Source of the DNA: an uncultured Solirubrobacteraceae bacterium
Lineage (GTDB): Bacteria; Actinomycetota; Thermoleophilia; Solirubrobacterales; Solirubrobacteraceae
DNA: 24,000 nucleotides
Direction: 5' to 3'
Assembly: GCA_963851425.1 (NCBI GenBank)
Contig: CAWKPC010000001.1
Location: 1,896,023 to 1,920,022, forward strand
Numbering within the stretch: the stretch's first letter is position 1; every line of letters begins with the position of its first letter. This document shows positions 2,064 through 20,925 of this stretch, piece by piece. A program made the position numbers and the translations under genes. The notes under the pieces are model-generated. The model did no database searches, was not told the origin of the DNA, and saw nothing but the letters and a program-made list of their open reading frames with translations.

Positions 2064-2085
2064 GTCGCACAAGTGCCATTGCGCG
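2064..2085. repeat. dispersed intergenic motif, copy A: GTCGCACAAGTGCCATTGCGCG
   Basis: 21/22 identical to copy B (20904..20925). Shares the exact 9-mer GTCGCACAA with copies at 15505, 17194 and 18538. Lies 117 nt downstream of the XRE gene stop (2202) and 78 nt upstream of the 535-aa gene start (1986). Confidence 0.7.
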
Positions 2086-2201
2086 CACCAGAGCCCGGCA
2101 TGTTCGCTCCCCCTCAGTGCCTGAGTCGGGGCCTCCCCGAGAGGGGAGCGTGACCGTTGATCGATCCGCACACTTGGCCCGACTCGACGTATGCAGCGGA
2201 A

Positions 2202-2576
2202 CTACCGCTCTTTGATCGCCTTGGCCAGCGCCGCCACGGCCGCGTCCAGGCGGTCGAAACCGGCGCGCATATCACGGCGCAGGCGGTGTAGCTCGCTGAG
2301 CACCTGCTGCTCGAAGGATGTACCGCCGACATCTCGGCCAGCGAGCTTGAACAGCTCGCCCACGTCTATGTCGAGGATGATGGCCAGCTTGGCGATGACC
2401 TCATCGGCTGGTGGGCCATGCTCGCCATTCTCCAGGCGAGACAGGTTGCCAGGACTCATGGGGATGCGCTCGGCCACTTGACGCTGGGTCAGCTTCTTGG
2501 CTCGGCGCAGGGAGCGGACGCGGGCTCCGAAAGCATGGGCACGCTCGGCTTGGGATTCAGGGCGACGAATGGGCAT
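2202..2576 (-). CDS. XRE-family helix-turn-helix transcriptional regulator (124 aa)
   Basis: Classic XRE HTH: FGARVRSLRRAKKLTQRQVAERIPMSPGNLSRLENGEHGPP. The ORF track extends to 2831, but the upstream 85 codons are Cys/Arg/Ser-rich and not protein-like. ATG 2576 (MPIRRPESQ) has GAGGGG immediately upstream, with short spacing. Confidence 0.8.
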   Translation of the reverse strand: MPIRRPESQAERAHAFGARVRSLRRAKKLTQRQVAERIPMSPGNLSRLENGEHGPPADEVIAKLAIILDIDVGELFKLAGRDVGGTSFEQQVLSELHRLRRDMRAGFDRLDAAVAALAKAIKER

Positions 2577-2672
2577 ACCCCTCGGTCTACACCCGCTGCA
2601 TGGCTGATCCCTTGATACAGTTGCGCATTGTGCGCCATGCTCGCTAATGTACACGCTGCCGTATCCCCACAC

Positions 2673-2716
2673 GCTTGAGGGCGGTGCAGTCCCCACAGAT
2701 GGCATCGCCCTCAAGC
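2673..2716. promoter_or_regulatory. 11-bp perfect inverted repeat GCTTGAGGGCG-N22-CGCCCTCAAGC in the divergent XRE / secreted-protein intergenic region
   Basis: Read directly: arms at 2673-2683 and 2706-2716, 30 nt upstream of ATG 2746. Could be an operator or a 5'-UTR hairpin. Function is inferred only. Confidence 0.4.
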
Positions 2717-2745
2717 ACTCGAAGCGATAAGGAGACCTCCTGCTG

Positions 2746-3645
2746 ATGTTGTCGTCCCGACCACACCACTGCTTCGCCCGACTCTGCCCCCTTATCGCGC
2801 TGGTGGCGCTGCTGGTGGTAGGCGTCGCCATCGGGTCGCGGCCAGCCCGAGCACTCGGTCCGACGGTCTATCTGAACCAGCCGAGGCTGGAACATCCGGT
2901 GCAGCCGAGCTCCTTGCAGATCGCCGAATACACCTCGCCGTCTATTGGCGGAAGTTCGTCGGTGTCGGGCGTAAGCTGGTCGAGCTGGGGCGAACCGACC
3001 GCAACGGGCACTGGTGAGGCGATTGTCGAGTGGGGTACGGCGGCAACCGGCTTCCATCAAGAACGAGCGATCATTCCAGTCCAGGTGAGCGCCACCGGAC
3101 GCCAGCTATGTGACGGCATTCTGATTTACACGGCGGTCGACCTCAAGCCTGCGCCAGGCATTATGACACCCCCGCACTTCGCCCTTTTCCAGCATGACAA
3201 CATCGTGCTGCCGTGCAAAGTTCACGGTGGTAACTATGTGGCAGGAAAGGACGAGCGGACTGATCCGGGTGGCTGCTTCTTCTCAGGTTTGTCGAAGCGG
3301 TTGCTGTTTCGCTCCCTGCCGACACATCGGTTCGGGGTTGGCTACTGCGCGATGCGCTGGACGAGCTGGGGCAGCGATAGGGCCGTCGGTGTTGGTGTCG
3401 GCCGGAAAATGGAACAGCAATATGGCCTCAGAGTGATCCTGAGCCGACCCAAGTGGTGTCCAGCTTGGACGGTCTCCTACACCCAGGAGACTGCTGAACT
3501 GTGGGGCACCGGCGAACCACTCACAGGCAACGGGAATGTCTCTCGCAGTGCCGCAACGCGACTGAAGTCCCTGATTGGTCGGCGCGGGCAGCCGCATTGG
3601 ACGGCGCATGATTCGGTGTCTACGGCTGCACACTGTCTCGGGTGA
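2746..3645 (+). CDS. hypothetical secreted or membrane-anchored protein (299 aa)
   Basis: ORF track. AAGGAG SD at 2729-2734. N-terminal signal/anchor CFARLCPLIALVALLVVGVAIGSRPARA. G/C-rich third positions. No family recognised. Confidence 0.7.
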   Translation: MLSSRPHHCFARLCPLIALVALLVVGVAIGSRPARALGPTVYLNQPRLEHPVQPSSLQIAEYTSPSIGGSSSVSGVSWSSWGEPTATGTGEAIVEWGTAATGFHQERAIIPVQVSATGRQLCDGILIYTAVDLKPAPGIMTPPHFALFQHDNIVLPCKVHGGNYVAGKDERTDPGGCFFSGLSKRLLFRSLPTHRFGVGYCAMRWTSWGSDRAVGVGVGRKMEQQYGLRVILSRPKWCPAWTVSYTQETAELWGTGEPLTGNGNVSRSAATRLKSLIGRRGQPHWTAHDSVSTAAHCLG

Positions 3646-7029: not shown

Positions 7030-7245
7030 ATGTCAAGAACGTACCACCATGGAGAACCAAAAATTAGGGTCAGAGGTGTACGCCGACCCACTGACTTGCG
7101 CCGCTTGGCGCGGACCTTGATTGAGCTGGAGTATCAACAGGCCCAGGCCGAAGCTGAGGCCGAGACCACACATAGCAAACAGCGAAAAACCAAACAGGGT
7201 AAGAGTCAGCGACGTAACGACGCGAACGGGGAGGCCGCATCGTGA
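7030..7245 (+). CDS. small basic protein (71 aa, MSRTYHHGEPKIRVRGVRRPTDLRRLARTLIELEYQQ...)
   Basis: The ORF track starts at 6973. I prefer ATG 7030, which follows GAAAGGAGG by 7 nt. Its stop overlaps the GTG of the next gene (GTGA at 7242-7245). Lys/Arg-rich, so possibly DNA-binding (inference). Confidence 0.6.
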   Translation: MSRTYHHGEPKIRVRGVRRPTDLRRLARTLIELEYQQAQAEAEAETTHSKQRKTKQGKSQRRNDANGEAAS

Positions 7246-9398
7246 CGTCGGCTGCTCCGATTTGGTACCGCCTGCGTTGGCCGCGCGAAGTCAAGCCCGA
7301 GCAAGTCGCCCAAGTGTTTCGCTTGCTGGCGACGGCTGCTGGAACGCCAGTCGTGATCGAGGCCGTTGGTTCGCCTGGCGCGGTCGAACATCGGTTGGCG
7401 TTGCCTGCCAGCCGAGCCGAAAGCGTGGTTGACCAGCTTCGAGCCGCGATACCCGGTCTGAGCGTCGAGGAAGTATCGGAGCGCCCCCCTCTGGCTGCGA
7501 GCCATGCTGTCGAGCTGCGTTTGTCGACCAAGCGCCGACCGCTGCGGAGCGATGACGTGGCCGGTATTAGCCGCGCCATATTGACGGCGCTGGCACATCT
7601 GCACCGTGGCGAGCATCTAAGTATTCAATGGGTACTTGGCCGATCGTTGGCCGCGGTGGCTGTACCGAATCAACTGGAGGGGTTGGGCCGAGAGTCATGG
7701 ATCGGTGCCCTGCTGCTGGCACCGTTTGGCACCCCGCCGCAGGCCGATATCGAGGTGCGCAATGCTGTGCGTGCCAAGCAAGCAGAGCCGGGTTGGCGGG
7801 CCGTTGGTCGCGTTAGCGTGAAGGCCAAGACGGTGAGCCGTGAACGGCAGTTGATCCGACAGGTGGTTGGCGCCATCGGGAGTGCCGAAGATCCCGGCGT
7901 CCGGTTTTGGGTTCGCAGAGCGAGCGTGAAGCGCGTGATCGCTGCGACGGCTGGCTGGCGTCTGCCGCTACGACTGAACGCCACTGAGCTTGCCACCGTT
8001 TCGTCCTGGCCGATTGGGTTGATCGGCGAGCTGCCGGTGTCGATGATCGGCAGTCGCCTAATCCCTCCATCCGGGGCGATCTCCCACAAGGGGCGAGTCG
8101 TTGGCACGGCGTCATTTCCGGGACGGGAGCGTCCCGTGACACTGTCACCTGTCGATTCGCTGCGACATCTGCACCTGCTTGGGCCAACCGGCGTCGGCAA
8201 GTCCACGCTACTGCTCAACCTCATAACCCAGGACATACAGGCTGGCCGGGCGGTAGTGGTGATCGAGCCGAAGTCCGACCTCATCGCGTCGGTGCTAGAG
8301 CGCATCCCACAGGAGCGCGTGAATGATGTGGTGCTCGTCAGCCCGGGAGATAGCCGCCCGGTTGGCTTGAATCCAATGGCTTTGCATGGTCGTTCGCCGG
8401 AGCTGGTCGCCGATCAGTTGCTCGGCCTCTTTCACTCGCTCTACGCAGCGCATTGGGGACCACGGACACACGACATTCTTGGGGCGTCGCTGCTGACATT
8501 GGCGCGAGCACCCGGCATGACGCTGGCGGCGCTGCCGCTGCTCCTAACGGATGCGAACTTCCGGCGACGGGCTCTGGCTCACATTGATGATCCGATCGGC
8601 CTAGAGCCGTTTTGGAGCGGCTATGAAGCCTGGAGTGAGCAGGAGCGCGCCACGGCCATAGCCCCAACTTTGAACAAGCTACGCCCGCTGTTGCTGCGGC
8701 CGGAAATGCGAGCCATCATCGGACAAACTTGTGGCTTTGATCTGCGTCAAGTTTTCACAGGGCGCAAGATCCTGCTGGTTGATCTCAGCAAGGGACTACT
8801 CGGGCCGGAGACATCGGCACTGCTCGGGAGCCTGGTTATCTCGCAGTTGTGGCAGACAATTCTCGGTCGAACTGGCATTGCGCCTGAGCAGCGCCATCCC
8901 GTGACAATTGTCGTAGACGAGTTTCAAGACTACCTACGCTTGCCTATGGATTTCGCAGATGCCCTAGCTCAGGCTCGTGGCTTGGGTGCTTCGTTCCATC
9001 TCGCGCATCAGTACCTCCACCAGCTCGATCCGGCGATGCGCTCGGCAGTGCTGGCCAACGCGCAGTCACGCATCGCTTGGCGGTTGTCGGCTGAGGATGC
9101 CCGGGTGCTAGCGGCCGGCACTTCGCTTTCGCCCGAGGACTTCCAAAGTCTCGGTGCCTTCCAGTGCTACGCCCAGCTCGTCGCGCAAGGTGCAATTCAG
9201 CCGTGGTGCAGTGTCGCCACCCTACCGCCAAGCCAGCCAATCAGCGACCCGGCGTTGGTCCGTGCCGCCTCACGGGGCAGCTACGGAGCCGATCGCGCTG
9301 TGGTTGAGGCCGAGCTGCACCAGCTCTTGTTCAATCGCCGGGCAACTGACGGTAATGACCTCGCGCCACGGCGTCGAGCTAACAGGAGCGCCAAATGA
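7242..9398 (+). CDS. TraD/TraG/VirD4-like type IV coupling protein-family P-loop ATPase, apparently soluble (718 aa)
   Basis: Walker A GPTGVGKST (aa 314-322, nt 8181-8207). Walker B IVVDEFQD (aa 556-563, nt 8907-8930). AHQYLHQL...SRIAWRL region typical of conjugative coupling ATPases. GGGGAGG SD 7 nt upstream of the GTG. No hydrophobic N-terminal helices. Confidence 0.85.
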   Translation: MTSAAPIWYRLRWPREVKPEQVAQVFRLLATAAGTPVVIEAVGSPGAVEHRLALPASRAESVVDQLRAAIPGLSVEEVSERPPLAASHAVELRLSTKRRPLRSDDVAGISRAILTALAHLHRGEHLSIQWVLGRSLAAVAVPNQLEGLGRESWIGALLLAPFGTPPQADIEVRNAVRAKQAEPGWRAVGRVSVKAKTVSRERQLIRQVVGAIGSAEDPGVRFWVRRASVKRVIAATAGWRLPLRLNATELATVSSWPIGLIGELPVSMIGSRLIPPSGAISHKGRVVGTASFPGRERPVTLSPVDSLRHLHLLGPTGVGKSTLLLNLITQDIQAGRAVVVIEPKSDLIASVLERIPQERVNDVVLVSPGDSRPVGLNPMALHGRSPELVADQLLGLFHSLYAAHWGPRTHDILGASLLTLARAPGMTLAALPLLLTDANFRRRALAHIDDPIGLEPFWSGYEAWSEQERATAIAPTLNKLRPLLLRPEMRAIIGQTCGFDLRQVFTGRKILLVDLSKGLLGPETSALLGSLVISQLWQTILGRTGIAPEQRHPVTIVVDEFQDYLRLPMDFADALAQARGLGASFHLAHQYLHQLDPAMRSAVLANAQSRIAWRLSAEDARVLAAGTSLSPEDFQSLGAFQCYAQLVAQGAIQPWCSVATLPPSQPISDPALVRAASRGSYGADRAVVEAELHQLLFNRRATDGNDLAPRRRANRSAK

Positions 9399-9727
9399 GA
9401 GCGCGACGTATCGCCCGTCGCATCGCGTCGATGGGTGCGCTTGAAAACCCCCGTACTGACGTAGGAGGCAGCCGAACTTTGGTAACGAAAGTCTTTCATC
9501 AGTTGTTTCAGTCTTTCTTGGTGTGCGTTGGCGCGGGCCAGTGGCGGACGGCTGAGCGAGGGATGGCCGATGCGCAAGGTCAGCGTCAGCGGAGTTCAGC
9601 GGGGGTGTGGCCCTCTCCACGGCCCTGGCATACCCGTCGGCTCGCGTCGTCAGCAGCGCCCGTCTCAACACCTTTCGCTACGTCTACATTGGTAACGAAA
9701 GAGGGTAAGAATGAGGTTGTGTCGTGA
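9395..9727 (+). CDS. possible bridging ORF (110 aa) between the coupling ATPase and the replication-relaxation gene
   Basis: ATG 9395 overlaps the upstream stop (ATGA), and its TGA overlaps the downstream GTG (GTGA at 9724-9727). An internal AGGAGG (9463-9468) precedes an in-frame TTG at 9479. The composition is odd (W/R/S-rich) and third-position bias is only about 60 percent G/C, so it may be non-coding. Confidence 0.35.
   Translation: MRARRIARRIASMGALENPRTDVGGSRTLVTKVFHQLFQSFLVCVGAGQWRTAERGMADAQGQRQRSSAGVWPSPRPWHTRRLASSAAPVSTPFATSTLVTKEGKNEVVS
9479..9701. repeat. 13-bp perfect direct repeat TTGGTAACGAAAG at 9479-9491 and 9689-9701
   Basis: Read directly. The copies are 210 bp apart and bracket most of the 325-bp gap upstream of the replication-relaxation gene. 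TCAGCG x3 (about 9579-9603) and GTCTTTC x2 lie in between. Confidence 0.6.
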
Positions 9728-10542
9728 GCTGTGCTCCTACGCGCTCGTACATCTCGGCGAGGGGGGTCGCGCGACTGCGAGAACGGCTGTCGGTGCGAGA
9801 CATGGCGATCATCGCCCAGGTAGCCGAGCTGCGACTGATGAGCGGCCGCCAGATTCAGGCGATCCACTTCCCCGGCAGCGAGCACGACAACGAGCAGGCC
9901 GCCATCCGCGCCCGCCAGCGAGTGCTAGAACGCCTCTGCCGCGAGCGACTACTGATCCATCTGGAGCGTCGCATCGGCGGCGTCCGGGCTGGCTCGGCTG
10001 GTCTGGTGCTGGCACTCGGGCCAGTCGGTCAACGGGTGCTTGCGCTCTATCGGCCTCGTCGTCGATCATACGAGCCGACGCTGCGGTTTGTCGATCACAC
10101 GCTCGCCCTGTCCCAACTCGTCGTAGACGTGACGGTGGCCGCTCGACAAGGGTCGCTCGACGTGCTGGACGCTCAGGCTGAGCCGCGAAGCTGGCGGGAG
10201 TTCTCCGGGCCAGGTGGACGACGCTTGCTCCGACCCGATGCGTTCTTGGCGCTTGGGATTGGCGCGTTCGAGCTGCGCTGGTTCATCGAGGTAGACCGCG
10301 CAAGCGAGAGCCTGCCAGTCGTCGTGCGCAAGTGTCGGCTGTATGCCGACTACTACCAATCCGGCAAGGAGCAGGCCAACAATGGCGGGGTCTTTCCCCG
10401 TGTCTGCTGGATCGTGCCAGACGAGGCGCGAGCTGCGCGGTTGCAGAACGCCATCGCTCGGGACCGTGCGTTGCCCGAACGACTGTTTGTGGTAGTCACG
10501 ACGGCTTCCGCCCTTGATATTCTCCGCGAGGTATCCACGTGA
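9724..10542 (+). CDS. replication-relaxation (Replic_Relax, PF13814-like) family protein (272 aa)
   Basis: N-terminal winged-helix-like LSVRDMAIIAQVAELRLMSGRQIQAIHF...RARQRVLERLCRERLLIHLERRIGGVRAGS, then FVDHTLALSQLVVDV...RPDAFLAL...WFIEVDRASES. This pattern and its position next to a TraD-like ATPase match the family as I remember it. Not verified by search. Confidence 0.7.
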   Translation: MSCAPTRSYISARGVARLRERLSVRDMAIIAQVAELRLMSGRQIQAIHFPGSEHDNEQAAIRARQRVLERLCRERLLIHLERRIGGVRAGSAGLVLALGPVGQRVLALYRPRRRSYEPTLRFVDHTLALSQLVVDVTVAARQGSLDVLDAQAEPRSWREFSGPGGRRLLRPDAFLALGIGAFELRWFIEVDRASESLPVVVRKCRLYADYYQSGKEQANNGGVFPRVCWIVPDEARAARLQNAIARDRALPERLFVVVTTASALDILREVST

Positions 10543-10545
10543 TTT

Positions 10546-10582
10546 CACACTTAACCTTTAATACTAGTGTGGTACACTTAAC
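10546..10582 (+). promoter_or_regulatory. AT-rich control region with direct repeat ACACTTAAC x2 upstream of the recombinase gene
   Basis: ACACTTAAC at 10547-10555 and 10574-10582, 27 bp apart, flanking AATACTAGTGT. Possible TTAACC (10551-10556), 16-nt spacer, TACACT (10573-10578) promoter, which would put the TSS at or near ATG 10589. Confidence 0.35.
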
Positions 10583-10588
10583 AACATT

Positions 10589-12442
10589 ATGGAGTTGGTG
10601 TTGCGTGAACGTAGTAAGGGTGACTGGTCGATGAGTCGAGCTGTTGAGCGTGGTCTTGAGGGCGATCCGGCGGTGATCTACTTGCGGGTGTCCAGCAAGG
10701 AGCAAGCCGAGAAGGGCGGCGAGGCTGAGGGCTACTCCATCCCTGCCCAGCGCGAAGGCTGCAAGCGCAAGGCCATCAGCCTCGATGCGGTTGTGGTCGA
10801 GGAGTTCGTGGAGCGCGGCGAGTCAGCCAAGACCGCTGATCGGCCGGAGCTACAACGGATGCTGGCCTACGTTGCCGAGAACCGCGTCAAATACGTCATC
10901 GTCCACAAGGTCGATCGGCTGGCGCGCAACCGCGCTGATGACGTGGCGATCAATATGGCGATCCGGCAGGCCGGAGCCGAGCTGGTCAGCGTCAGCGAGA
11001 ACATCGACCAAACGCCATCCGGGCTGCTGCTGCACGGCATCATGTCCTCGATCGCGGAGTTCTACAGCCGCAACCTCGCCAATGAGGTCATCAAGGGCAC
11101 CGTCCAGAAGGCCAAGAACGGTGGCACGCCAGGCCGGGCTCCGACTGGCTACCTGAACGTGCGGTGCATGGTCGAGGGCCGCGAAGCCCGCACCATCGAG
11201 ATCGACCCGGTGCGTGGGCCGCTAATGCGGTGGGCATTTGAGACGTATGCGACGGGAGAGTGGACGATCCGTCGTCTGCTGGCCGAGTTGACGGCGCGTG
11301 GCCTGACGACAGCGCCTGGACGGCAGAAGACTGGCCGAGCGCTGGGTGTTTCGCATCTGCATACGCTGCTACGCAATCCCTACTACATGGGGATGGTGCG
11401 CTACCGGGGCGCAATCTATGCGGGTAGACATGAGCCGTTGGTGACGCCGGAGGTTTGGAACGAGGTTCAGAAGGTCTTGAGCGCGAAGTACCTGACGGGC
11501 GAGAAGGACCGCGAGCACCCGCACTACCTCAAGGGGAGCATCTACTGCGGCCAGTGCGGCGCTCGCATGATCGTCAACCACGCCAAGGGCAACGGTGGCG
11601 TCTATCCGTACTTCATCTGCGGTGGACGCCAGCGCGATCCGCTGAGCTGCAAACAGCGGGCGGTACGGATTGAGCAGGTCGAGGCCGCGATCATCGCCCA
11701 CTACGGCACCGTGCAGATCCCTGCGGAGGAGGTCGAACGACTCCGCAAGTTCTTGAGTGATGAGCTGGCAAAGCTCCGTAGCGAATCCGATCACGAACGG
11801 GGAGTGCAGGAGCGCCGGTTGAGCAAGTTCCAAGGCGAACGCGAGAAGCTGCTGCAAGCCCACTACGCCGACGCGATCCCGCTGGAACTGCTCAAGAGCG
11901 AGCAAGATCGCCTCACGACGGCGATTGCCGGGGCGGAAGGCCGGTTGGCTGCCATCGCCGCCGACTTCAAGACGGCCGAGACGAACCTCGAAAGAGCCCT
12001 GGCCCGCGCAAAGGACTGCCAAGCGGCCTACCGCGAGGCAACAGACCGGATGCGGCGACAGTTCAATCTGGCGTTCTTCAAGCGGCTCATCATCAGCGAC
12101 GAGGGCATCGTTTCCGGGGAACTGGCCGAGCCGTGGGACGTGATCTTGGGAGAGGAGCTGCGTAGAGCAGTTGCCGTTCGAGAAGCCGAAAGCTTGAGGG
12201 ACGCGATCGAGCAAGCCGAGCGCAACACAACGTGGCACCCACGCGAGCCTGAGTTGGCTCTTGTGGGTGCCACGGCCGCCGCCCCTGATAAGGGCGACGG
12301 TTGGAGTCCGAACATTTTGGTGCGGACCCGGGTACAACGTCGGAACCCCGATCGCTTCCTTGAGGATCTCATGGAGCCGGTCGCTCGGCAAGCCCGAAAG
12401 CGGGCCGTGAAGGCGATTCGTAGCGCAGGCAGAGCGGTTTGA
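10589..12442 (+). CDS. large serine recombinase / integrase (617 aa)
   Basis: Resolvase-type catalytic domain (VIYLRVSSKEQ with nucleophile Ser, DRPELQRML, VIVHKVDRLARN). Recombinase domain (GYLNVR...WTIRRLLAELTARG). Zinc ribbon CGQCGARM...FICGGRQ...SC. Long C-terminal coiled coil. An alternative start is ATG 10631 (MSRAVERG), which has AAGGG upstream. Confidence 0.9.
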   Translation: MELVLRERSKGDWSMSRAVERGLEGDPAVIYLRVSSKEQAEKGGEAEGYSIPAQREGCKRKAISLDAVVVEEFVERGESAKTADRPELQRMLAYVAENRVKYVIVHKVDRLARNRADDVAINMAIRQAGAELVSVSENIDQTPSGLLLHGIMSSIAEFYSRNLANEVIKGTVQKAKNGGTPGRAPTGYLNVRCMVEGREARTIEIDPVRGPLMRWAFETYATGEWTIRRLLAELTARGLTTAPGRQKTGRALGVSHLHTLLRNPYYMGMVRYRGAIYAGRHEPLVTPEVWNEVQKVLSAKYLTGEKDREHPHYLKGSIYCGQCGARMIVNHAKGNGGVYPYFICGGRQRDPLSCKQRAVRIEQVEAAIIAHYGTVQIPAEEVERLRKFLSDELAKLRSESDHERGVQERRLSKFQGEREKLLQAHYADAIPLELLKSEQDRLTTAIAGAEGRLAAIAADFKTAETNLERALARAKDCQAAYREATDRMRRQFNLAFFKRLIISDEGIVSGELAEPWDVILGEELRRAVAVREAESLRDAIEQAERNTTWHPREPELALVGATAAAPDKGDGWSPNILVRTRVQRRNPDRFLEDLMEPVARQARKRAVKAIRSAGRAV

Positions 12443-12902: not shown

Positions 12903-15485
12903 ATGCCTGAAAGCAAGATGGACGATCAAGCTAATCCCCCAACGCCAACCGCGCGCCAACTCCTGACTGAGTGGGCGAACCAGCAAGACGGTTGGCTTCG
13001 TCAGCTTGTCTTCGAGGTACTCGCGTCAGGCCAGCCCGCTTCAGACAAAGCTCTCGGCGGGATCTACGACCTCTTCCTCCTCGAAAAGGGCTTGGCGGAG
13101 GGCACCCACGAGCCGGTTGCGTCGTTGGCGTACAACGAGTCATCCGATGAAGCATCAGGCGGGTTTGTGTTCCGCAAGCTTGAGAAGGTGCGTGGCGTAA
13201 ACGCGCTGACCGAGGGACAAGCCATCGAGTTCAACCCTGGCTTGACAATCCTGTTCGGCGAGAACGGCACCGGAAAGACTGGCTATGCCCGTGTCCTCAA
13301 GACACTCGCGGGTGTTCGCACGGCCGAGGAGATCCTTCCCAACGTCCATGAGCCAAGCGTCGCCGTACCACGGGAGGCCACCGTTGCGTATGCAATCGGA
13401 GACCACGAGCGCGTACTCGAATGGAAAGGCGAGTTGGGCGTACCGCCAATCACTCAAGCCAGCGTCTTCGACTCGCCAGCCGTGCGGCTTCACGTTGATG
13501 ATGATCTGGCGTACGTCTATACGCCTCGGGATCTCGCCCTGTTCCACGTCGTATCTGAAGGCATTGACGCGATCCAGGCTCGAGCGGAGAAGGATGCCGC
13601 AGACCATCTACCGGGCGGGAATCCCTATTTGCAGTTCTTTGAGCGAGGCACGGTCGTCTATCCGCACGTCGAGACCTTGGGTCCAGCTACGGACGTTCCG
13701 GCACTTGAGACACTAGCGGCCGTTACCGAAGATGAAGAAAAGACCGTCGTCTCTCTCAAAACAACGGTTGCCGCGCTCGAATCCGACTCGATCCCGGCCC
13801 AGCTCACCGCTGCACGCAGCCGAGCGCAGCTGTACAGAGAGCTGGCGAAAGGCGCCGACACTGCTTCAACGTTCGACAGCGACGCATACAAGCAGTCGGT
13901 GAAGGCCGCAAACGATGGAGCCGACGCATATGCGAGCTTGCGGTCAGAGTTGCTCGCGAGCGCGGGCATCGCGGACCAGTCGGAAGATGCCTGGCAGACA
14001 TTCATCTTGGATGGGGACGCCTATCGAGCGCACATCGGTGCAGATGACTATCCACATGACGACGATTCGTGCCTCTACTGCCGCCAGCCACTCGCGCCAG
14101 AGGCCCTTGCGCTCTTGAAGCGATATCGCGAATTCGCGGCTGACGCCGCTCGCGGTCGCATTGATGCTGCGCGGGCGCAGACGACCAGTCTGTCGCGCCA
14201 CCTCACGGGTCTAAGTCTCTCGTCCCTGCACTCGGCGGTGAAGCAACTCCAGGAGGATAACCTCGAGGATCAGTATCTTGCCGGAGTAGAGGCGTTTCTC
14301 GTCAGGCTGGATGCCCAAGAGCCGCATTGGCAAGCTGGAGCCGCAGTCGACTGGACTGGCATCGGCGATACAGCACGCGTGGTTGAGAAGGAAGCCGCCA
14401 CCCGCCGCGATGCTGCCGAGTCCCTCGTTACCGACCTCACAACACGCTCGGCTGACAGAGCCGAGCTGCTCAAGACTGAATCCGCGAAGCTCGCTGAGCT
14501 CAATGGTCGGCTTGAGCTGAAGAAGCGCCTTGCTGAGATCAAGGCCACCGTAGACGATGCAAAGTGGGCTCAGCGGGCCAAGCAGCTCATCAAAGCATTC
14601 CCGACCCTCAAGCGTTCTTTGACCGAAGTCTCCAAGACCGCCAGCGAGCAACTCCTCAATGCCGATTTCGGACGCCGGTTTGCGGATGAGTGCAAAGCAC
14701 TGAGAGCTCCAGTCGTCCGACTGGAGTTTCCGGGGAGACGCGGCCAACCCGCCAGACGGAAGGTGGTCTCAGCCGACCACAAGCCATCACAAATTCTATC
14801 CGAGGGTGAGCAGAAGGTCATCGCGTTGGCAGATTTTTTGGCGGAGGCCGCGTTGCGCCTCATCCCCGCACCGATTATCTTCGACGATCCGGTCAACAGC
14901 CTGGATTACCGGCGGATACATGAGGTCGCCGGCCGCATTGCACAACTTGCTGATGCCCGTCAGGTAGTCGTATTCACCCATAGCATCTGGCTCGCGACCG
15001 AGCTCCTCGACCGCTTTGAAAAGGATAAGTCACGGTGCAAGTACTACTCGGTGACCGATGATGGCGGTAAGGGCATTGTGGTCGCTGGCACACACCCCCG
15101 ATGGGACAGTGTCGCGAACACGACTAAGAAGGTCAATGAGGTGATTGCATCGGCAAAAACAGCCGAGGGAGAGACACGTCAAGCACTAATCGAGAGTGCG
15201 TATTCGAAGATCCGCTCGTGGTGCGAGATCGTAGTCGAGATGGAGCTGCTCCAAGGTGTGACTCAACGATACCAAGCGAACGTCATGATGACGAGGCTTG
15301 CCGACATTAAGGCCGACCGCCTCGCTGCCGCTACTGACATAATCAATCCCGTCTTCCTGAGAGCCTGTCGCGTCATGGATGGTCATTCACAGCCCCTTGA
15401 GACTCTTTCAGTGCGCCCCACGCTGGCCGAGCTTGAGCAAGACTGGGCAGACATCGGGGCAGCGCGCGCCGCATATATTGCTTAA
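12903..15485 (+). CDS. PrrC/RloC-like (AAA_13-type) ABC ATPase with coiled-coil insert and CxxC zinc hook (860 aa)
   Basis: Walker A GENGTGKT (aa 119-126). ABC signature LSEGEQ (aa 632-637). Walker B IIFDDP (aa 658-663). His-switch region VVFTHS. An A/E/L/R-rich helical insert of about 500 aa lies between them, with C390-L-Y-C393 (nt 14070-14081) at its midpoint. The C-terminal domain has R771-x3-E775...H828. Confidence 0.85.
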   Translation: MPESKMDDQANPPTPTARQLLTEWANQQDGWLRQLVFEVLASGQPASDKALGGIYDLFLLEKGLAEGTHEPVASLAYNESSDEASGGFVFRKLEKVRGVNALTEGQAIEFNPGLTILFGENGTGKTGYARVLKTLAGVRTAEEILPNVHEPSVAVPREATVAYAIGDHERVLEWKGELGVPPITQASVFDSPAVRLHVDDDLAYVYTPRDLALFHVVSEGIDAIQARAEKDAADHLPGGNPYLQFFERGTVVYPHVETLGPATDVPALETLAAVTEDEEKTVVSLKTTVAALESDSIPAQLTAARSRAQLYRELAKGADTASTFDSDAYKQSVKAANDGADAYASLRSELLASAGIADQSEDAWQTFILDGDAYRAHIGADDYPHDDDSCLYCRQPLAPEALALLKRYREFAADAARGRIDAARAQTTSLSRHLTGLSLSSLHSAVKQLQEDNLEDQYLAGVEAFLVRLDAQEPHWQAGAAVDWTGIGDTARVVEKEAATRRDAAESLVTDLTTRSADRAELLKTESAKLAELNGRLELKKRLAEIKATVDDAKWAQRAKQLIKAFPTLKRSLTEVSKTASEQLLNADFGRRFADECKALRAPVVRLEFPGRRGQPARRKVVSADHKPSQILSEGEQKVIALADFLAEAALRLIPAPIIFDDPVNSLDYRRIHEVAGRIAQLADARQVVVFTHSIWLATELLDRFEKDKSRCKYYSVTDDGGKGIVVAGTHPRWDSVANTTKKVNEVIASAKTAEGETRQALIESAYSKIRSWCEIVVEMELLQGVTQRYQANVMMTRLADIKADRLAAATDIINPVFLRACRVMDGHSQPLETLSVRPTLAELEQDWADIGAARAAYIA

Positions 15486-15504: not shown

Positions 15505-15520
15505 GTCGCACAAGCGGCAT
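15505..15520. repeat. dispersed intergenic motif, copy D: GTCGCACAAGCGGCAT
   Basis: Exact 10-mer GTCGCACAAG shared with copies A and B. Lies in the 46-bp gap between the convergent ATPase (stop 15485) and peptidase (stop 15532) genes. Confidence 0.55.
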
Positions 15521-15531
15521 ATTACACTCGC

Positions 15532-16617
15532 TTAGCGCACCGAGCACTTCTGCTTAGCCAACGTGATCAGCCTTTCGTGGAGGATGATAACGCCAATCAA
15601 AGAGCTGATATACGCGAATATGTCATCAAGCTCATTAGATAGATCGTCTCGCTCCACTACGCATGTGTTCGCCTTGATTCGTTCCCACCGTGCATGTCCG
15701 GACGGATGCGAACTCATCATCGCTAGATAAGTGTCTGTCTCGCTCGATGAGCCGAAAACTAGCGCCAAGATCTCGCATAGCCCAAAGAAATGCATCAAGC
15801 TGCCACACGCGACCGCCGCTCTCTCTTGTGGATAGCGAGACAACAGGCAAGCGACCGCGTATGCGTCAGCTTCGAACTCAGCGTTGTGGGCCTGAGAGGG
15901 TTCGGTCGCACGATCCTGCGCTAGAGTGGGCTTTATCGAGTCAAGATGACCGAGCCGAAAATGCCCATACTCATGTAGAAGAATAAACTCCTCAATCGTG
16001 ATGGCTAGATCCGTAAAATTGTCATCCGGCACAGCAAGTGCAGTGAGAATGTCACGGTGACTAGGCTTCATTGACGCTATTATGTCGCCTGTAGTCGCTA
16101 CTCGTGCAAGCCCGATCAGGACGTCGACATAAGACGGCGCCGACTTGGGATCTATGGCCTGACAGGTCGCGATAGCAAAAATGCAACGCAGTATAAGACC
16201 GAGCACGTTGACCACGGCTTCGTTGAGGACGATGATTGCCCCACCATGCGGCGTCGCAGAGATCCTGCCGTTAAGCGTCTCCAGCGGAAGCATTCCGACC
16301 GGTATCGATTCAAGCGTTTCTCTATCGGCCCCGGTCATTGAGAGGGCGGATTCTCGCAGCCTGCCGATCAGTGTGCCTCGGAAACTTCTCTCATATGACA
16401 TCATCTCGTCGTTGTACTCCACGTACTTGACCCACTGGCGTGGCTCTGCGGCTCCCGTCGCTACCCACGCATCAAAATGTTCGCGGAGCTGATCCAGCGG
16501 AATATACCTCGGTGGAAGATCCTCCGCGTAATGCGTTGAGAGGACCGATTCGAAGAGCAGCTTGAGATGGCGGTCGTCGTTAGATTCAGGAGGCAAAACG
16601 GCCGCTCGTTCCTTCAC
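15532..16617 (-). CDS. M48-like HExxH zinc metallopeptidase domain protein with unknown about 200-aa N-domain (361 aa)
   Basis: HEYGH (aa 215-219, nt 15961-15975), EFEADAYA (aa 247-254) and SSHPSGHARWERI (aa 302-314). This is the HExxH / E-x-x-A-D / (S/T)HP...R(I/L) motif set of peptidase M48 (HtpX/Ste24/BepA-type). An ImmA/IrrE-like (M78) relationship is not excluded. GTG start, no clear SD. Confidence 0.75.
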   Translation of the reverse strand: MKERAAVLPPESNDDRHLKLLFESVLSTHYAEDLPPRYIPLDQLREHFDAWVATGAAEPRQWVKYVEYNDEMMSYERSFRGTLIGRLRESALSMTGADRETLESIPVGMLPLETLNGRISATPHGGAIIVLNEAVVNVLGLILRCIFAIATCQAIDPKSAPSYVDVLIGLARVATTGDIIASMKPSHRDILTALAVPDDNFTDLAITIEEFILLHEYGHFRLGHLDSIKPTLAQDRATEPSQAHNAEFEADAYAVACLLSRYPQERAAVACGSLMHFFGLCEILALVFGSSSETDTYLAMMSSHPSGHARWERIKANTCVVERDDLSNELDDIFAYISSLIGVIILHERLITLAKQKCSVR

Positions 16618-16687
16618 AATGCGCTTGAGTAGTGTTCCTCGAAATCACTTGCGGTGCATCTCTGTGCAGGCACTCTGCGATGCGCAG

Positions 16688-17098
16688 CTAGACCCGCAAT
16701 GCCGTAATAACGGCATTAAGGTCTAGCCCATCGGCACACACATCGTATGTTGTATGGTTCCCGTCGGCCGTGAAAGCAATAACGGTGCCCCCTGGCAAAT
16801 CGGGTACCTCAACGATAGAGAGGGAGTCGCCTCGTGCGTCGATGACGAGCCCCCGCTTGCGTCCGCGACAGACCACGTTCTGGATCTGTGAGGCAAGATA
16901 CCCTGCACTAGCTGTACCTGAGATGATCAACGTGGCTGTCTCCGCGAACACGGCCTTGCCGGTGTCGAGAAGGGCTGCGGAACTCCGCGGATCTTCGTCG
17001 ATCTCAAGGACGATCTTACGAGCATCTGCCAAGGACGCGCCTTGTCGCAGCCGCCACGAAAAAGCTATCGCATCGCTCACGGACGCGATTCTACACAT
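16688..17098 (-). CDS. hypothetical protein (136 aa), first gene of the peptidase operon
   Basis: ORF track. Same strand, 70 nt upstream of the peptidase gene. Good codon bias. No HTH or other motif recognised. Start codon has no clear SD. Confidence 0.6.
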   Translation of the reverse strand: MCRIASVSDAIAFSWRLRQGASLADARKIVLEIDEDPRSSAALLDTGKAVFAETATLIISGTASAGYLASQIQNVVCRGRKRGLVIDARGDSLSIVEVPDLPGGTVIAFTADGNHTTYDVCADGLDLNAVITALRV

Positions 17099-17287: not shown

Positions 17288-18376
17288 TCAAGGAACAGTA
17301 AGCGTGTTTGAGCTGATACCGTTAATAGTCACCCACACCTGATCGCCTGCTTCGTAGTCGTAGCATGTGTGGCCATTGTCCCATGTCTCTGGGCTGACGG
17401 TCTCGTACAGCGTAAAGGTCGCGTCGCCCCCGCTGGCGAAGTCGCAAGAGTAGCTATACGAACCAGGCGCGAACCCTTCCATGTTGAGCCATATCCAGCC
17501 AGGGTGTGCGCCACTCCATCCGATATGTAGTGCCTGCGACGGAGGCGTCGGTGTGGGTGTGGGTGTGGGTGTGGGTGTAAGTGTAGGTGTAGGTGTGGAT
17601 GTGCCGCCGCCTTGGGGATTGACGGTCGGCCCTTGTATGCCAGAACTATTGACAGACGTGCTTGACACCGGCAGCGACGAACCACCGCTCGGTGCTCCCG
17701 TTGAGGACGCGTGCGACGAGCACGCCGACCCGTCGATGACACCTTTGAGCAAAGATAGCGACACTGCTTTACCACCAGAAGCCGTGATGCCGTCAGCGAA
17801 CAGCGAGGCGGCGCATGAGGGGTTGATCTTCGAGATGACCCAGCTAATGGCCTTAGAACTGACCCAGACGACGCCCTTCTCCGCGAGACACTCGACAAAG
17901 CCTGGTACGTCGCCGTCAAGAATGCTGAGACACAGCGCGTCCTGGACTTTCGTTAGCAGACCGGAGATCGAGAAAAGCGATAGCTGGCTTACCCAGACGG
18001 TTCGCTGACCGGGCTGGTTGCTCTCGGGAACCCAGAGCCCGCCGAGGTCGTGAGCGACAACTTCGGTGCCGTTGCGCAGCGGCGCCGTGACCTCAACGGA
18101 GCCATGCCACGGCACGTTGATCTTGATGGCGATGCGGCCACCGGAGAGCCGGGTGATCGAGGCGGAGCCATTTCGCTTGACTACGTGCGGAGGCACGTAG
18201 AGATTCCAGCCATCCCCGGCGTTGACGTCGCCTCCGCCACGAACGGTCAGATGCTGCCTGGCAAGTAGGCGAGCCGCCTTGGAGTGGGCAGCCGCGGGCT
18301 GCGCAACCACTCCTAGAACAAGCGCAACGGCAGCAGCCATCGGAATGGTCCAGCGCAATCCAACCCATACCCGCAT
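17288..18376 (-). CDS. secreted protein with Thr-Pro repeat linker and about 85-aa C-terminal domain (362 aa)
   Basis: GAGGGAG SD 6 nt upstream of ATG 18376. Signal peptide MRVWVGLRWTIPMAAAVALVLGVVAQPAAAHS. Linker TSTPTPTLTPTPTPTPTPTPP. C-terminal module SQALHIGWSG...VWVTINGISSNTLTVP. No family recognised. Confidence 0.75.
   Translation of the reverse strand: MRVWVGLRWTIPMAAAVALVLGVVAQPAAAHSKAARLLARQHLTVRGGGDVNAGDGWNLYVPPHVVKRNGSASITRLSGGRIAIKINVPWHGSVEVTAPLRNGTEVVAHDLGGLWVPESNQPGQRTVWVSQLSLFSISGLLTKVQDALCLSILDGDVPGFVECLAEKGVVWVSSKAISWVISKINPSCAASLFADGITASGGKAVSLSLLKGVIDGSACSSHASSTGAPSGGSSLPVSSTSVNSSGIQGPTVNPQGGGTSTPTPTLTPTPTPTPTPTPPSQALHIGWSGAHPGWIWLNMEGFAPGSYSYSCDFASGGDATFTLYETVSPETWDNGHTCYDYEAGDQVWVTINGISSNTLTVP
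17549..17602 (-). repeat. imperfect hexanucleotide tandem repeat (GGTGTG/GGTGTA)n encoding the TP linker
   Basis: Read directly: ggtgtgggtgtgggtgtgggtgtgggtgtaagtgtaggtgtaggtgtgg. Lies inside the CDS above. Confidence 0.8.
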
Positions 18377-18537: not shown

Positions 18538-18561
18538 GTCGCACAAACCCGGTAGTGCGCG
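18538..18561. repeat. dispersed intergenic motif, copy E: GTCGCACAAACCCGGTAGTGCGCG
   Basis: Exact 9-mer core plus the terminal TGCGCG shared with copies A and B, but with a 9-nt rather than 7-nt spacer. Lies 31 nt downstream of the murA stop (18592). Confidence 0.6.
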
Positions 18562-18591
18562 ATGCTGCCTCATCTGGAGCCGCTCACGCAT

Positions 18592-19941
18592 CTACTCGGC
18601 TATGTCTGCACCGAGGTCTCGTATGCGCATGATCAGGTTGTCGTATCCACGGACGAGATGCTCGCTTCCGTGCAGGGTGGTATGTCCGTCGGCTACGAGA
18701 CCGGCAATAAGGAGGGCGGCGCTCGCGCGCAGGTTGTCGCCGGTGACCGCCGTACCGTGCAGGCGCGTCGGCCCTTCAATTTGTACGACCTGTCCGTCTG
18801 GCGACGCCTCGGTGAATCCATAGGCGGCGGTACTACGCGTGTCATCGAGGCGGACCACCGCACCCATGTGCGCCAGCTCCGCAACCTGGGAGAACCGCGC
18901 GGAGTACACGGTCTCATGGAATGTACTCCTGCCCGAAAGGCGGGTCATAAATACCTGAACCAAGGGGCCCCAATCCGTGAGGAAGTCTGGATAAGGGCCG
19001 CTTGTGAGGTGGAGAGCCCCGCCACCATGCCACGCATTCCCATGCACCACTAGAGAACTCGTGGTGCTGTCGATCGGGACGCCAGCATGCTCCAATGCGG
19101 CGAGGAGTGGGCCGATTGGCTCTCGCCCAATACCGACGATTTCGACCTCGCCCCCGCAGAGCGCCCCAGCAATAGCTAGTGTCGCTGCATCGTTACGGTC
19201 AGGTGGAACCGCGTAGCGCGTCGCGGGAACCGTCGTCTCGCGGCCAACGATGTGAAGAGAGCCGGGAGACGTTGTTTCGATCAAGACACCGGCACGTCGG
19301 AGAAAATCGATCAGCGTGAGAACGTCAGGATCGATGGAGGCTCCTTCTATGGTCGTGCTGCCCTGCGCTCCGACGGCCGCCAAGATGGCGTTGGCCGTAC
19401 CGTTCACGGTGTCGCGCTCAAAGCGGATCACCCCTCCCGTCAACGGCTCGGCGAGCAAGCGATAACCCGACCCCTTTTGCTCGATCGTTGCGCCAAGGCT
19501 TTGGAATGCATCCAGATGACGATCGACTGGCCTTGAGCCGATCTCGTCCCCGCCGGGGTCACCCACCTCAGCCAATCCAAATCTTCCAAGTAGCGCCCCA
19601 GCGAAAAGGAAGGAGCCGGTAGAGCGCCGCGTCAGGTTTGATGCGAGTGGTTCGGGACGCACTCGGGTCGAGTCAAGCGTCAAGATCGACCGATACGTGT
19701 CGAGCGTCACCTCTGCCCCGAGCGCCTGCGTGATGGCGACTAGCGATTTAGCATCTTCCGTCTGTGGAACACCACGGAGGTGATGAACTGCGGGAAGAGC
19801 GATACAGGCCGCGATGAGCTTGTGAAACGCATTCTTTGAGCCTGCGACGGGCACCACGCCAGAGAGGTGAGCGCCTCCGGCGATGGTGATTTGGCTCGAC
19901 TGCTGAGAGCTCGGTACGCTGCTTGGAGTCATTTCTTTCAC
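18592..19941 (-). CDS. murA: UDP-N-acetylglucosamine 1-carboxyvinyltransferase (MurA), Asp variant at the Cys115-equivalent position
   Basis: ITIAGGAHLSGVVPVAGSKNAFHKLIAA, PGGDEIGSRPVDRHLDAFQSLGATIE and C-terminal HLVRGYDNLIMRIRDLGADI match the conserved MurA blocks (GxKN, GGC-x-IGxRPVDxH, RGY...LGA). The track start is GTG 19941; ATG 19932 is an alternative. Confidence 0.9.
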   Translation of the reverse strand: MKEMTPSSVPSSQQSSQITIAGGAHLSGVVPVAGSKNAFHKLIAACIALPAVHHLRGVPQTEDAKSLVAITQALGAEVTLDTYRSILTLDSTRVRPEPLASNLTRRSTGSFLFAGALLGRFGLAEVGDPGGDEIGSRPVDRHLDAFQSLGATIEQKGSGYRLLAEPLTGGVIRFERDTVNGTANAILAAVGAQGSTTIEGASIDPDVLTLIDFLRRAGVLIETTSPGSLHIVGRETTVPATRYAVPPDRNDAATLAIAGALCGGEVEIVGIGREPIGPLLAALEHAGVPIDSTTSSLVVHGNAWHGGGALHLTSGPYPDFLTDWGPLVQVFMTRLSGRSTFHETVYSARFSQVAELAHMGAVVRLDDTRSTAAYGFTEASPDGQVVQIEGPTRLHGTAVTGDNLRASAALLIAGLVADGHTTLHGSEHLVRGYDNLIMRIRDLGADIAE

Positions 19942-19955
19942 ATACCAGTTTATGA

Positions 19956-19985
19956 ATTATATGCCTTTATGCAAAGCACTGTCCG
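19956..19985 (-). promoter_or_regulatory. possible murA promoter
   Basis: The minus strand reads CGGACA (19985-19980), an 18-nt spacer, then perfect TATAAT (19961-19956), in an AT-rich patch. This implies a very short leader. Weak -35. Confidence 0.3.
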
Positions 19986-20002
19986 TCGAAATGTCATCGC
20001 TG

Positions 20003-20674
20003 TCAAGGTGTGTGTGCTGGTGGGACGGAGCGCGTAACCGGTCTGCTCTGCTTTGTGGGATGGTGAGCCGACGCCTTTCCTGGCTGAAAGGCTGTGATGA
20101 TCGCAACAGTCAGAGCCAGCCCCCACAAGAGTCCAATTAGCATCGGAATCCACGTCGAAAAGAGCGTGTTCGGGTCAGGCACAAGACGATGCAGACGCAT
20201 GATGATCTTCGGTGGCCTCCCAAGACGGATTACCGCCTGAGCTTGTCGCGTCGGCACGTCACGCCAAAATCTCGCTCGGGCAGAGGTGAAATCAAGGTCG
20301 GCGTCACGTGCGGTTTTGCCTGGATACCAATAGTCTGGGTCGGTCTCGATGAGTCCAGCGGTGCTGCGCCAGAACTCTAGCGCGCTAATGGTGCGAGCGA
20401 TCAAGAAAGGATGCACAACACTCAGCGCCAGCCCGACGACGGGAATCGCGACACTCATGGGGTTGTGCGCTTGAAGGCTGACGCCAAACGCCGCAAACAA
20501 GAACGATGTCGTCAGCAGAAACGTATTCGTGCGGGCAAGCACAAAGCGGCTCTCGTGCAGGACCAGTTCGAGCACCTTCCCATGAAGCGCGACAAGCCGC
20601 AGATGCCGGTCTCGCTGAGCGTCCGTGGTCCACCGACCCGGTGTTGTGCCGGTCGACGTAGCTGGACTAGACAT
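20003..20674 (-). CDS. hypothetical 3-TM membrane protein (223 aa)
   Basis: The ORF track extends to GTG 20893. ATG 20674 (MSSPATSTG) has GGAGG 5 nt upstream, and the extension is Arg-rich and not protein-like. TM helices: FLLTTSFLFAAFGVSL, MSVAIPVVGLALSVVHPFLIA and TWIPMLIGLLWGLALTVAIITAF. Confidence 0.65.
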   Translation of the reverse strand: MSSPATSTGTTPGRWTTDAQRDRHLRLVALHGKVLELVLHESRFVLARTNTFLLTTSFLFAAFGVSLQAHNPMSVAIPVVGLALSVVHPFLIARTISALEFWRSTAGLIETDPDYWYPGKTARDADLDFTSARARFWRDVPTRQAQAVIRLGRPPKIIMRLHRLVPDPNTLFSTWIPMLIGLLWGLALTVAIITAFQPGKASAHHPTKQSRPVTRSVPPAHTP

Positions 20675-20903
20675 ACCCGCCTCCGAATCGCTTGCTGTAG
20701 TGGATTCGGGTAGAACGTAGTGTTGCGTATGCGTGGCGTTCGCGGTCCCCCATGAGCGTATGATGACGCCTGCCGTCGGGACGCGGAAGGCAAGACTTAG
20801 AGTTGATCCCCTGGGGGAAAGAAGCTGTGCGAGCTTCCTCCGTCTCCCGCGTTGCCTCCGCCGGTTTGCGGGGTCTAGTGGACCATGTGTCACACGGGAT
20901 CAC

Positions 20904-20925
20904 GTCGCACAAGTGCCGTTGCGCG
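20904..20925. repeat. dispersed intergenic motif, copy B: GTCGCACAAGTGCCGTTGCGCG
   Basis: 21/22 identical to copy A. Lies 7 nt downstream of the XRE gene stop (20932) and 230 nt upstream of the membrane-protein ATG 20674. Confidence 0.7.

Follow-up and report, generated by a model that had tools for sequence, protein, structure and literature searches.

What is a short sequence doing when it recurs, always in the same orientation, between the genes of a bacterial low-GC island? The question arises from 24,000 nucleotides of DNA of an uncultured Solirubrobacteraceae bacterium (contig CAWKPC010000001.1, hereafter C1), and we refer to this whole stretch, C1:1896023-1920022, as the window. The source genome measures 2.87 Mb at 68.3% G+C; the window, at ~60% G+C, belongs to a low-GC island. 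An earlier note had described five co-oriented copies of a motif with the core GTCGCACAA, each just downstream of a minus-strand gene, and had offered three readings of them: operators of XRE-family regulators, a 3'-end RNA element, or recombination sites at cassette boundaries. We favor the last of these. At about an even chance, the five copies and a sixth one outside the window, X, are core-type recombination sites at cassette boundaries, closest in behavior to the dif modules of Acinetobacter. That such sites partition the cargo end of integrative mobilizable elements into cassettes, in one genus of the Solirubrobacteraceae, is a claim that we hold to be equally balanced between right and wrong.

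A 24-bp site with one invariant arm and four spacer classes

The 9-mer GTCGCACAA occurs five times on the plus strand of the window (positions 2064, 15505, 17194, 18538 and 20904) and never on the minus strand. Dinucleotide shuffles of the window held a mean of 0.27 copies and none of 100 reached five, which confirmed at all five coordinates that the co-oriented set is beyond chance. The extended sequences that had been quoted for the five copies matched, the distances of 117, 7, 31, 75 and 12 nt from the preceding minus-strand stop codons agreed with the table of open reading frames (ORFs), and the preceding genes were found to encode HTH_3/HTH_31 (XRE) proteins, a MurA of EPSP_synthase fold, and others without a Pfam match. 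Copy X, in the same orientation, lies at C1:1895837, 186 nt to the left of window position 1.

Across the 2.87 Mb of the genome the 9-mer occurs 18 times, and a position weight matrix scan returned 7 strong full sites at 29-34 bits above a noise level of <20 bits. All 7 fall in three low-GC islands (~1.72, ~1.84 and 1.90-1.93 Mb), and the 9-mer is neither common nor randomly placed. In total the genome holds ~11 copies of the site, every one of them within mobile islands.

We then collected sites from 43 loci of one genus, comprising the three islands of the source genome and 40 loci from relatives. Among 117 distinct sites the information content was zero beyond 24 (at most 26) positions and the flanks were uninformative. 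The unit is an imperfect palindrome of 24 bp with a 9-6-9 anatomy, GTCGCACAA-N6-KTGNGCGAC, in which the left arm is practically invariant and the right arm is a weaker inverted copy of it. The palindrome described earlier was upheld, and its length of 22 nt was corrected to 24 bp, with copy E carrying an insertion and copy D lacking the right arm. Position 19, which stands opposite the invariant A6, is occupied as base composition alone would predict (T27/C34/G37/A19 in the 117 sites).

The N6 spacer falls into four classes: GCGGCA (class 1), TCGGCG (class 2), CCGGTA (class 3) and GTGCCR (class 4). When N6 was unrestricted, the first 41 genomes yielded 18 exact matches, of which 16 carried one of the four classes; in a wider census, which was partly built from class-restricted searches, 117 of 148 sites did so, and the remainder were mostly single-base variants. 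The median distance from stop codon to site was ~32 nt by a gene caller based on third-position G+C (GC3), which is crude and unreliable in 60%-GC islands and makes strand and distance statistics only rough. The copies in and beside the window, all on the plus strand, are as follows.

2064..2087, plus strand: site A, class 4, GTCGCACAA GTGCCA TTGCGCGCA; 34.0 bits; 117 nt past the XRE1 stop codon
C1:1895837 (outside the window), plus strand: site X, class 1 (GCGGCA), partner of A; 31.3 bits
20904..20927, plus strand: site B, class 4, GTCGCACAA GTGCCG TTGCGCGAT; 32.4 bits; 7 nt past the XRE2 stop codon; first of its array
18538..18563, plus strand: site E, class 3, GTCGCACAA-AC-CCGGTA GTGCGCGAT; spacer insertion of 2 nt; 31 nt past the murA stop codon
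17194..17217, plus strand: site C, class 2, GTCGCACAA TCGGCG TTGGGTGAA; 29.5 bits; 75 nt past the stop codon of a 362-aa gene
15505..15528, plus strand: site D, class 1, GTCGCACAA GCGGCA TATTACACT; 12.8 bits; last of its array, between convergent genes

Site D scores only 12.8 bits because its right arm has been lost.

This anatomy bears on the reading of the site as an RNA element on the minus-strand transcript, namely a hairpin terminator, a 3'-end stabilizer or a processing site resembling repetitive extragenic palindromic (REP) elements. The intergenic position shortly past stop codons would suit such an element, and copies A and B can form a stem of 7-8 bp. However, the central pair (positions 6/19) is random across the collection, and 10% of sites form ≤5/9 pairs while their left arm and spacer stay perfect. 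The departures from pairing are all one-sided because the left arm never varies. With the wobble position random and the departures one-sided, the strand-specific hairpin with a G-U wobble that had been proposed earlier gained no support. Nor was a U tract found: none of the 117 sites has a run of ≥4 U within 12 nt 3' of it on the gene-sense strand. Mean fold energy was -11.5 kcal/mol against -10.4 kcal/mol for shuffled sequence, the five window copies folded no better than their shuffles (z from -0.96 to +0.97), and no copy had a terminator-like match. Rfam gave no match in the window at gathering score, nor in 12200-13000 at E≤1. The number and confinement of the genomic copies are also unlike those of REPs, which are dispersed in hundreds. 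Taken together, an RNA element is highly improbable.

Homology between genomes breaks at the edges of the site

We compared all loci against each other by blastn, excluding duplicates of any one genome, and obtained 2912 high-scoring segment pairs (HSPs) of ≥150 bp between genomes. Only three of the 2912 ran through a site with 50 bp to spare on either side; two of these three form a reciprocal pair in which at least one member is non-Solirubrobacter DNA and its 'site' a chance match. Left ends of HSPs piled up at the site start (243 at -5..+2, against 12 at -50..-6 and 0 at -100..-51), and no right ends lay beyond +25. The first 43 loci alone gave the same picture of breakpoints. An example from the window is the homology of the murA end to a truncated murA with a CCGGTA site in another genome (G194, locus L047), which begins at -1 of site E.

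The same cassettes also recur in different surroundings. Of 401 genomes of the genus, 29 carry a HicAB cassette; its 30 copies differ in their surroundings, with 26 distinct left and 26 distinct right contexts. Those copies that are 90-96% identical start at the GTCGCACAA behind hicA, where a degenerate right arm, TT[T/C]TCGGAC, has been kept in eight genomes. At the other end, where the upstream site stands directly before hicB, identity ends right after that site's GTCGCACAA, and the spacer and right arm vary by genome (GCGGCA-TTAGGAGTC, CCGGTA-TTGAGCGAC, CCGGTA-TTCGCTGAC and GCGGCA-TTGTCCGCC). The spacer and the weak arm therefore travel with the cassette whose 3' end they abut, which places the joint within the invariant arm or at its inner edge. 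A second cassette, encoding a 152-aa protein, is 92% identical in two genomes between class-1 and class-2 sites, and the DNA outside both sites is unrelated. These comparisons show that cassettes are joined at the sites.

The HicAB cassette has its own near-consensus promoter, TTGCCG-N18-(TG)TATAAT, between the site and the start codon (loci L041, L042 and L055; genomes G011 and G002). This promoter lies only 6 nt before the ATG, which suggests a leaderless transcript or one with a very short leader. A role for the site itself as a promoter was considered and rejected: on the gene-sense strand, no -10 box was seen by eye at a fixed distance from TTGTGC in ten copies. Since HicAB and murA have promoters elsewhere, the site is not a promoter.

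Spacer classes stand in a fixed order

The exact motif was present in 7 of 24 other genomes of the genus. Searches of 16 genomes from the order's other families, and of 194 genomes that represent 50 other genera of Solirubrobacteraceae, did not find it, and a reversed-pattern control gave zero in both motif searches. Because the site was found in the genus and was absent from the other families and genera searched, we take it to be a genus-restricted standard, within the limits of this sample and of incomplete metagenome-assembled genomes (MAGs).

Within arrays, the four classes follow one order when read in motif orientation: GCGGCA < TCGGCG < CCGGTA < GTGCCR. Adjacent pairs in 80 de-duplicated arrays with ≥2 sites were ascending in 122 cases, descending in 6 and equal in 8, and 69 of the 80 arrays were strictly ascending. 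Shuffling the classes within arrays 10,000 times gave a mean of 64 ascending pairs and a maximum of 83, and no shuffle reached the observed number. Smaller sets of arrays gave the same class order. The commonest arrays were 14, 12, 124, 1234 and 123. Both arrays of the window conform, one being 1-4 (X, A) and the other 1-2-3-4 (D, C, E, B); exceptional strings were 11, 114, 112234 and 12123. Sites were direct repeats in all but one (L051) of the 43 arrays that were read site by site. The class order has survived many replacements, as the cargo between the sites differs among genomes. The origin of the fixed order is not explained by a simple linkage of class to cassette.

A fixed order could also arise if the sites were passive linkers without a dedicated protein, conserved by descent and serving as microhomology for general recombination between co-resident elements. 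Tandem related elements such as those in the window would provide the opportunity, and two sites of one class have 15-16 bases in common where two of unlike class have 9-10, a difference that would by itself favor same-class exchange and keep the order. Yet 15-24 bp is at or below the length for efficient RecA-dependent exchange, which makes these stretches too short or marginal for it. An invariant arm and four discrete spacers, kept across hundreds of species while the flanks have fully diverged, are also hard to explain without a function. We consider passive linkers improbable.

The arrays lie at the cargo end of integrative elements

Pfam, PADLOC and tblastn searches resolved the window into two tandem, diverged elements of the same build, with the layout (site 1-cargo-site 2-cargo-site 3-cargo-site 4)(XRE/wHTH/XRE)(TraG-like, Replic_Relax)(serine recombinase), where wHTH stands for winged helix-turn-helix. 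The cargo array and the regulator module are on the minus strand; the TraG/VirD4-like ATPase, the Replic_Relax protein and the large serine recombinase are on the plus strand. The module of element 1 has an XRE regulator, and that of element 2 consists of an XRE protein, an 84-aa winged-helix-like protein and a second XRE protein. The modules that lie in the window are as follows.

7242..12442, plus strand: transfer and integration module of element 1, with a TraG/VirD4-like ATPase, a Replic_Relax protein and a large serine recombinase (10589-12442) (Pfam)
20932..22001, minus strand: conserved regulator module, with XRE2 (20932-21255), the 84-aa protein (21256-21510) and XRE3 (21720-22001) (Pfam HTH_3/HTH_31)

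A second, diverged set of transfer and integration genes lies to the right of the window (C1:1921965-1928615), with tblastn paralogues 31-37% identical at C1:1922145-1928360; the serine recombinases of the two tandem elements are 37% identical. The right end of the island is a tRNA-Leu(GAG) gene (C1:1928509-1928598, minus strand), which the ORF of the second recombinase spans. This tRNA gene stands just upstream of lexA, whose SOS box reads CGAACACATGTTCG. Both right ends, that at tRNA-Leu and that at the junction between the elements, have CAACGTCGG in common, and a GTCGCACAA site is absent from each. A block of ~139 bp at window positions 12321-12459, where the first serine recombinase gene has its 3' end, was also seen in other genomes (90% identity in locus L057) and is present twice in another island of the source genome (~C1:1816642-1816822). 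This block, with the shared CAACGTCGG, may be the attachment region of the serine recombinase.

The left end of the element could not be fixed, synteny being rearranged in relatives. No tRNA direct repeats were found at the junction between the elements and no tRNA genes within the window, and positions 15400-22900 had no DNA matches in plasmid and phage collections. Backbone proteins (of 299, 499, 241 and 84 aa, and others) had no match in PHROGs or Pfam, and no hidden recombinase or excisionase emerged among them. Near-identical pairs of IS3-family transposase genes (orfA/orfB) are found in two of the site-bearing islands, B (C1:1717-1721 kb) and C (C1:1829-1831 kb); in island B this insertion sequence adjoins the class-2 site, and a truncated serine recombinase comes next.

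The association with serine recombinases opens a further explanation, in which the sites are secondary attachment (att) sites of that enzyme and the array is a stack of recombinase-less units, as in the composite islands of the staphylococcal cassette chromosome (SCC/SCCmec). In genomes other than this one, too, most of the arrays examined are situated 8-21 kb upstream of a co-oriented gene for a large serine recombinase. Several loci have the class-1 end directly against the 3' end of such a gene, and no other recombinase was found in cis. Serine-integrase att sites, however, need ~40-50 bp, and conservation here spans just 24-26 bp. The two right ends are marked by CAACGTCGG and not by the site, recombinases only 37% identical would have to use identical sites, and a central dinucleotide of GG in three of the four classes cannot encode the distinction between classes. 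The candidate identification of the site as the att site of the serine recombinase was dropped once both element ends had been read. We regard this explanation, too, as decidedly unlikely.

The XRE module and the operator alternative

The array of element 2 adjoins the 3' end of the XRE2/84-aa/XRE3 module. Throughout the collection the class-4 site stands directly 3' of an XRE module, with 24 cases of protein family 0 and 17 of protein family 2 to the right of class-4 sites. The 84-aa protein is winged-helix-like by eye only and has no family match. An exact protein look-up found no identical record for XRE2. Its nearest relatives in metagenomes are 75-82% identical and lie on short contigs with diverged versions of the site, and they include no filled/empty pair. 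On the gene-sense strand, three soil contigs (loci L209, L212 and L213) carry GTCGCCTAC-TGGCAC-TTGGGCGAC, TCGCAA-TGGCAC-TTGTACGAA and TCACAA-TGGCGC-TTAGGCGAC behind their XRE2 homologues, and related lineages may use shifted versions of the arms. A perfect 9-bp inverted repeat, CCGCACAAT / ATTGTGCGG (22029-22111), brackets the divergent promoter region of XRE3 and the 241-aa gene and holds a half-site of the motif. It may be local or a chance occurrence, since half-sites are not enriched at that position in other genomes.

A rival explanation is an operator or insulator, in which a helix-turn-helix (HTH) dimer of XRE2, XRE3 or the 84-aa wHTH-like protein would bind the palindrome between cassettes and repress or activate transcription or block its read-through, with the turnover of cargo incidental. 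The size of the palindrome fits HTH dimers, and its inner core, ACAA-N6-TTGN, is shaped like the phage 434 operator ACAA-N6-TTGT, which is bound by founding members of the HTH family and in which uncontacted central bases tune affinity. The constant place of the class-4 site beside the XRE module, the diverged site versions at the same place behind distant metagenomic XRE homologues, and the inverted repeat flanking the XRE3 promoter region would all suit this explanation. Against it, half-sites within 3 kb of 82 XRE-adjacent class-4 sites numbered 29 in ~246 kb (0.12 per kb, against a background of 0.15 per kb), so the autoregulatory sites to be expected are missing. At HicAB the site ends 26 bp upstream of the -35 box and does not overlap the promoter. 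A symmetric operator would also leave the co-orientation, the asymmetry of the arms, the ordered spacer classes and the breakpoints unexplained. The idea gained no support, and we judge it unlikely.

Cargo between the sites

The genes between the sites vary and are of kinds usual for accessory cargo; they include HicA/HicB, OLD-family and AAA ATPases, a PDC-S06 candidate, a response regulator, a MurA paralogue, a putative metallopeptidase and membrane proteins. The genes adjoining the sites of the window are as follows.

18592..20893, minus strand: B-E cassette, a 296-aa membrane protein (weak 8xMP match) and MurA (EPSP_synthase, 5e-52) (Pfam)
19985-19956, minus strand: promoter-like CGGACA-N18-TATAAT upstream of murA (sequence match)
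17288..18376, minus strand: E-C cassette, a 362-aa protein without a family match
15532..17098, minus strand: C-D cassette, a 136-aa protein and a 361-aa putative metallopeptidase (weak PADLOC match to peptidase_U41)
379..1986, minus strand: A-X cassette, a 535-aa membrane protein with a homologue in genome G011 (locus L041), family 45
12903..15485, plus strand: 860-aa AAA_13 ATPase, a PDC-S06-type candidate for defense, convergent on site D (PADLOC 5.8e-128, full length; Pfam AAA_13)

Given the promoter-like site before murA, the two genes of the B-E cassette may be separate transcription units. The AAA_13 ATPase gene lies between the first recombinase and the array of element 2 and is the only plus-strand cargo gene adjoining that array.

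Proposed recombination at the sites

With homology breaking at site edges and cassettes recurring in new contexts joined at the sites, recombination or cassette-boundary sites are the favored choice among the three readings offered earlier. From these patterns we infer that a site-specific recombinase acts at the sites. The 9-6-9 anatomy, the asymmetry of a strong and a weak arm and the discrete spacers point to a tyrosine-recombinase mechanism of the Xer/dif-module kind. Cassettes would be exchanged, inserted and deleted via recombination at the sites by an enzyme probably encoded elsewhere in the host. Exchange would take place mostly between sites of the same spacer and would thereby keep an ancestral scaffold order, which deletions between unlike classes would keep as well. 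Same-class insertion of circles of one or two cassettes would give rise to the exceptional strings 11, 114, 112234 and 12123.

Several observations weigh against this reading. The genome has 10 matches to PF00589, none of them in the three site-bearing islands, and in 5 other genomes no tyrosine recombinase was consistently near the arrays; the sole recombinase in cis is the large serine recombinase, whose element ends share a sequence unlike the motif. A candidate host dif, ACGCTCGATAA-TACATG-TTATGTAAACC (C1:1434637-1434664), is the only ATAA-N6-TTATG match near the cumulative GC-skew maximum (~1.46 Mb), and it is unlike the site, with 6/11 and ~4-5/11 arm positions matching by eye. Some cassettes do not respect class: a toxin-antitoxin-like cassette (~83% identical) occupies slot 2|3 in one case and slot 1|2 in the other, so that the site classes differ at both ends, and HicAB abuts upstream sites of three classes, from which it follows that events between unlike classes also happen. 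A gene 91% identical in two genomes has its homology borders 135 bp from the site, and no pair of genomes was found with filled and empty states sharing both flanks. Finally, because the genomes share ancestry, neither HSPs nor arrays can be counted as independent events, and the search patterns partly imposed the left arm and the spacer classes.

A more specific proposal is that the arrays form a natural slot system, with four sites that have a common arm and mutually incompatible spacers in fixed order, so that cargo, largely defense and toxin-antitoxin genes, is swapped slot for slot without collapse of the array by a recombinase encoded outside it. We put this forward tentatively and consider it rather more doubtful than probable.

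Comparison with known systems

The closest parallel is with the dif modules of Acinetobacter plasmids, which are flanked by pdif (XerC/XerD) sites (PMC13141974, PMC6449649). In both systems the boundaries of accessory modules, which are often toxin-antitoxin pairs and turn up in many contexts, are short core-type sites with a 6-bp spacer. Conservation is stronger in one arm than in the other, and no dedicated recombinase gene adjoins the modules. The system here is nevertheless no member of the dif-module family. The arms here are 9 bp and not 11, and their sequence is unlike the candidate host dif (11-6-11). The sites here are direct repeats, whereas successive pdif sites switch between C/D and D/C. 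The arrays described here are carried by an integrative element in the chromosome of an actinobacterium and not by a Rep_3 plasmid, and the four spacer classes in fixed order set the arrays further apart. Recombination between identical spacers, as for dif modules, fits the class order and the duplications 11 and 12123, but not HicAB beside three classes.

Integrons share with these arrays a co-oriented series of mostly single- or two-gene cassettes that recur in different arrays, an imperfect palindrome at the cassette 3' end, its outer core inverse to an inner core that is better conserved, and a joint that maps to the conserved core inside the site. They differ in most other respects: no IntI-type tyrosine recombinase is nearby, and the site is 24 bp against 57-141 bp for attC with its R''-L''/L'-R' boxes (RYYYAAC...GTTRRRY), a consensus that the arms GTCGCACAA / TTGNGCGAC miss, except where a right arm happens to match it. 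Neither a folded single-strand substrate nor extrahelical bases are in evidence, the cassettes here have their own promoters, and their sites come in four classes of fixed order. Complete integrons have not been found in Actinobacteria (PMC4889954).

SCC/SCCmec islands resemble the present elements in that short direct repeats part stacked cargo, the element encodes a large serine recombinase (Ccr in SCC), and many modules have none of their own. Here, by contrast, the recombinase's own element ends are without the site, the site is too short for a serine-integrase att, and the arrays are internal to the element, at the far end from the recombinase gene. Operators of the phage 434/P22 type, which are bound by XRE dimers of the Cro/C1 kind, have in common with the site a palindromic ACAA-N6-TTGN core, a variable central 6 bp and adjacent XRE genes. 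Unlike such operators, the conserved part here is 24 bp long and asymmetric, lies between cargo genes and not over promoters, is not enriched at the regulators' own promoters, and coincides with homology breakpoints. The slot system proposed above has its likeness in cassette exchange with heterospecific lox or FRT sites, in which identical arms and incompatible spacers in a fixed order define slots and swaps proceed without deletion of the array. That is a laboratory design, however, and the natural counterpart suggested here evidently admits events between unlike classes.

Literature searches found the 9-mer GTCGCACAA only as an unrelated primer sequence, and turned up no publication on this site or on cassette arrays, of serine recombinases or otherwise, from this lineage. 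As far as these searches reached, a fixed order of four spacer variants has not been described for any natural cassette system.

What the arrays would mean for the genus

If the recombination reading is true, a genus of abundant soil actinobacteria with hundreds of species-level genomes, so far MAGs only, has a standardized way of shuffling accessory genes between mobile elements, distinct both from integrons and from the dif modules of Acinetobacter. Its fixed spacer order would show how a direct-repeat array stays stable while its contents turn over. Candidate anti-phage genes (PDC-S06, OLD-family ATPases) and toxin-antitoxin pairs are among the cargo, so the arrays also offer a ready catalogue of mobile defense genes, and short sites with orthogonal spacers, together with their enzyme, could serve as genome-engineering parts for high-GC bacteria. 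Should the slot system hold as well, nature would have its own version of the laboratory exchange that uses heterospecific lox sites, and this in a phylum for which no complete integron has been found.

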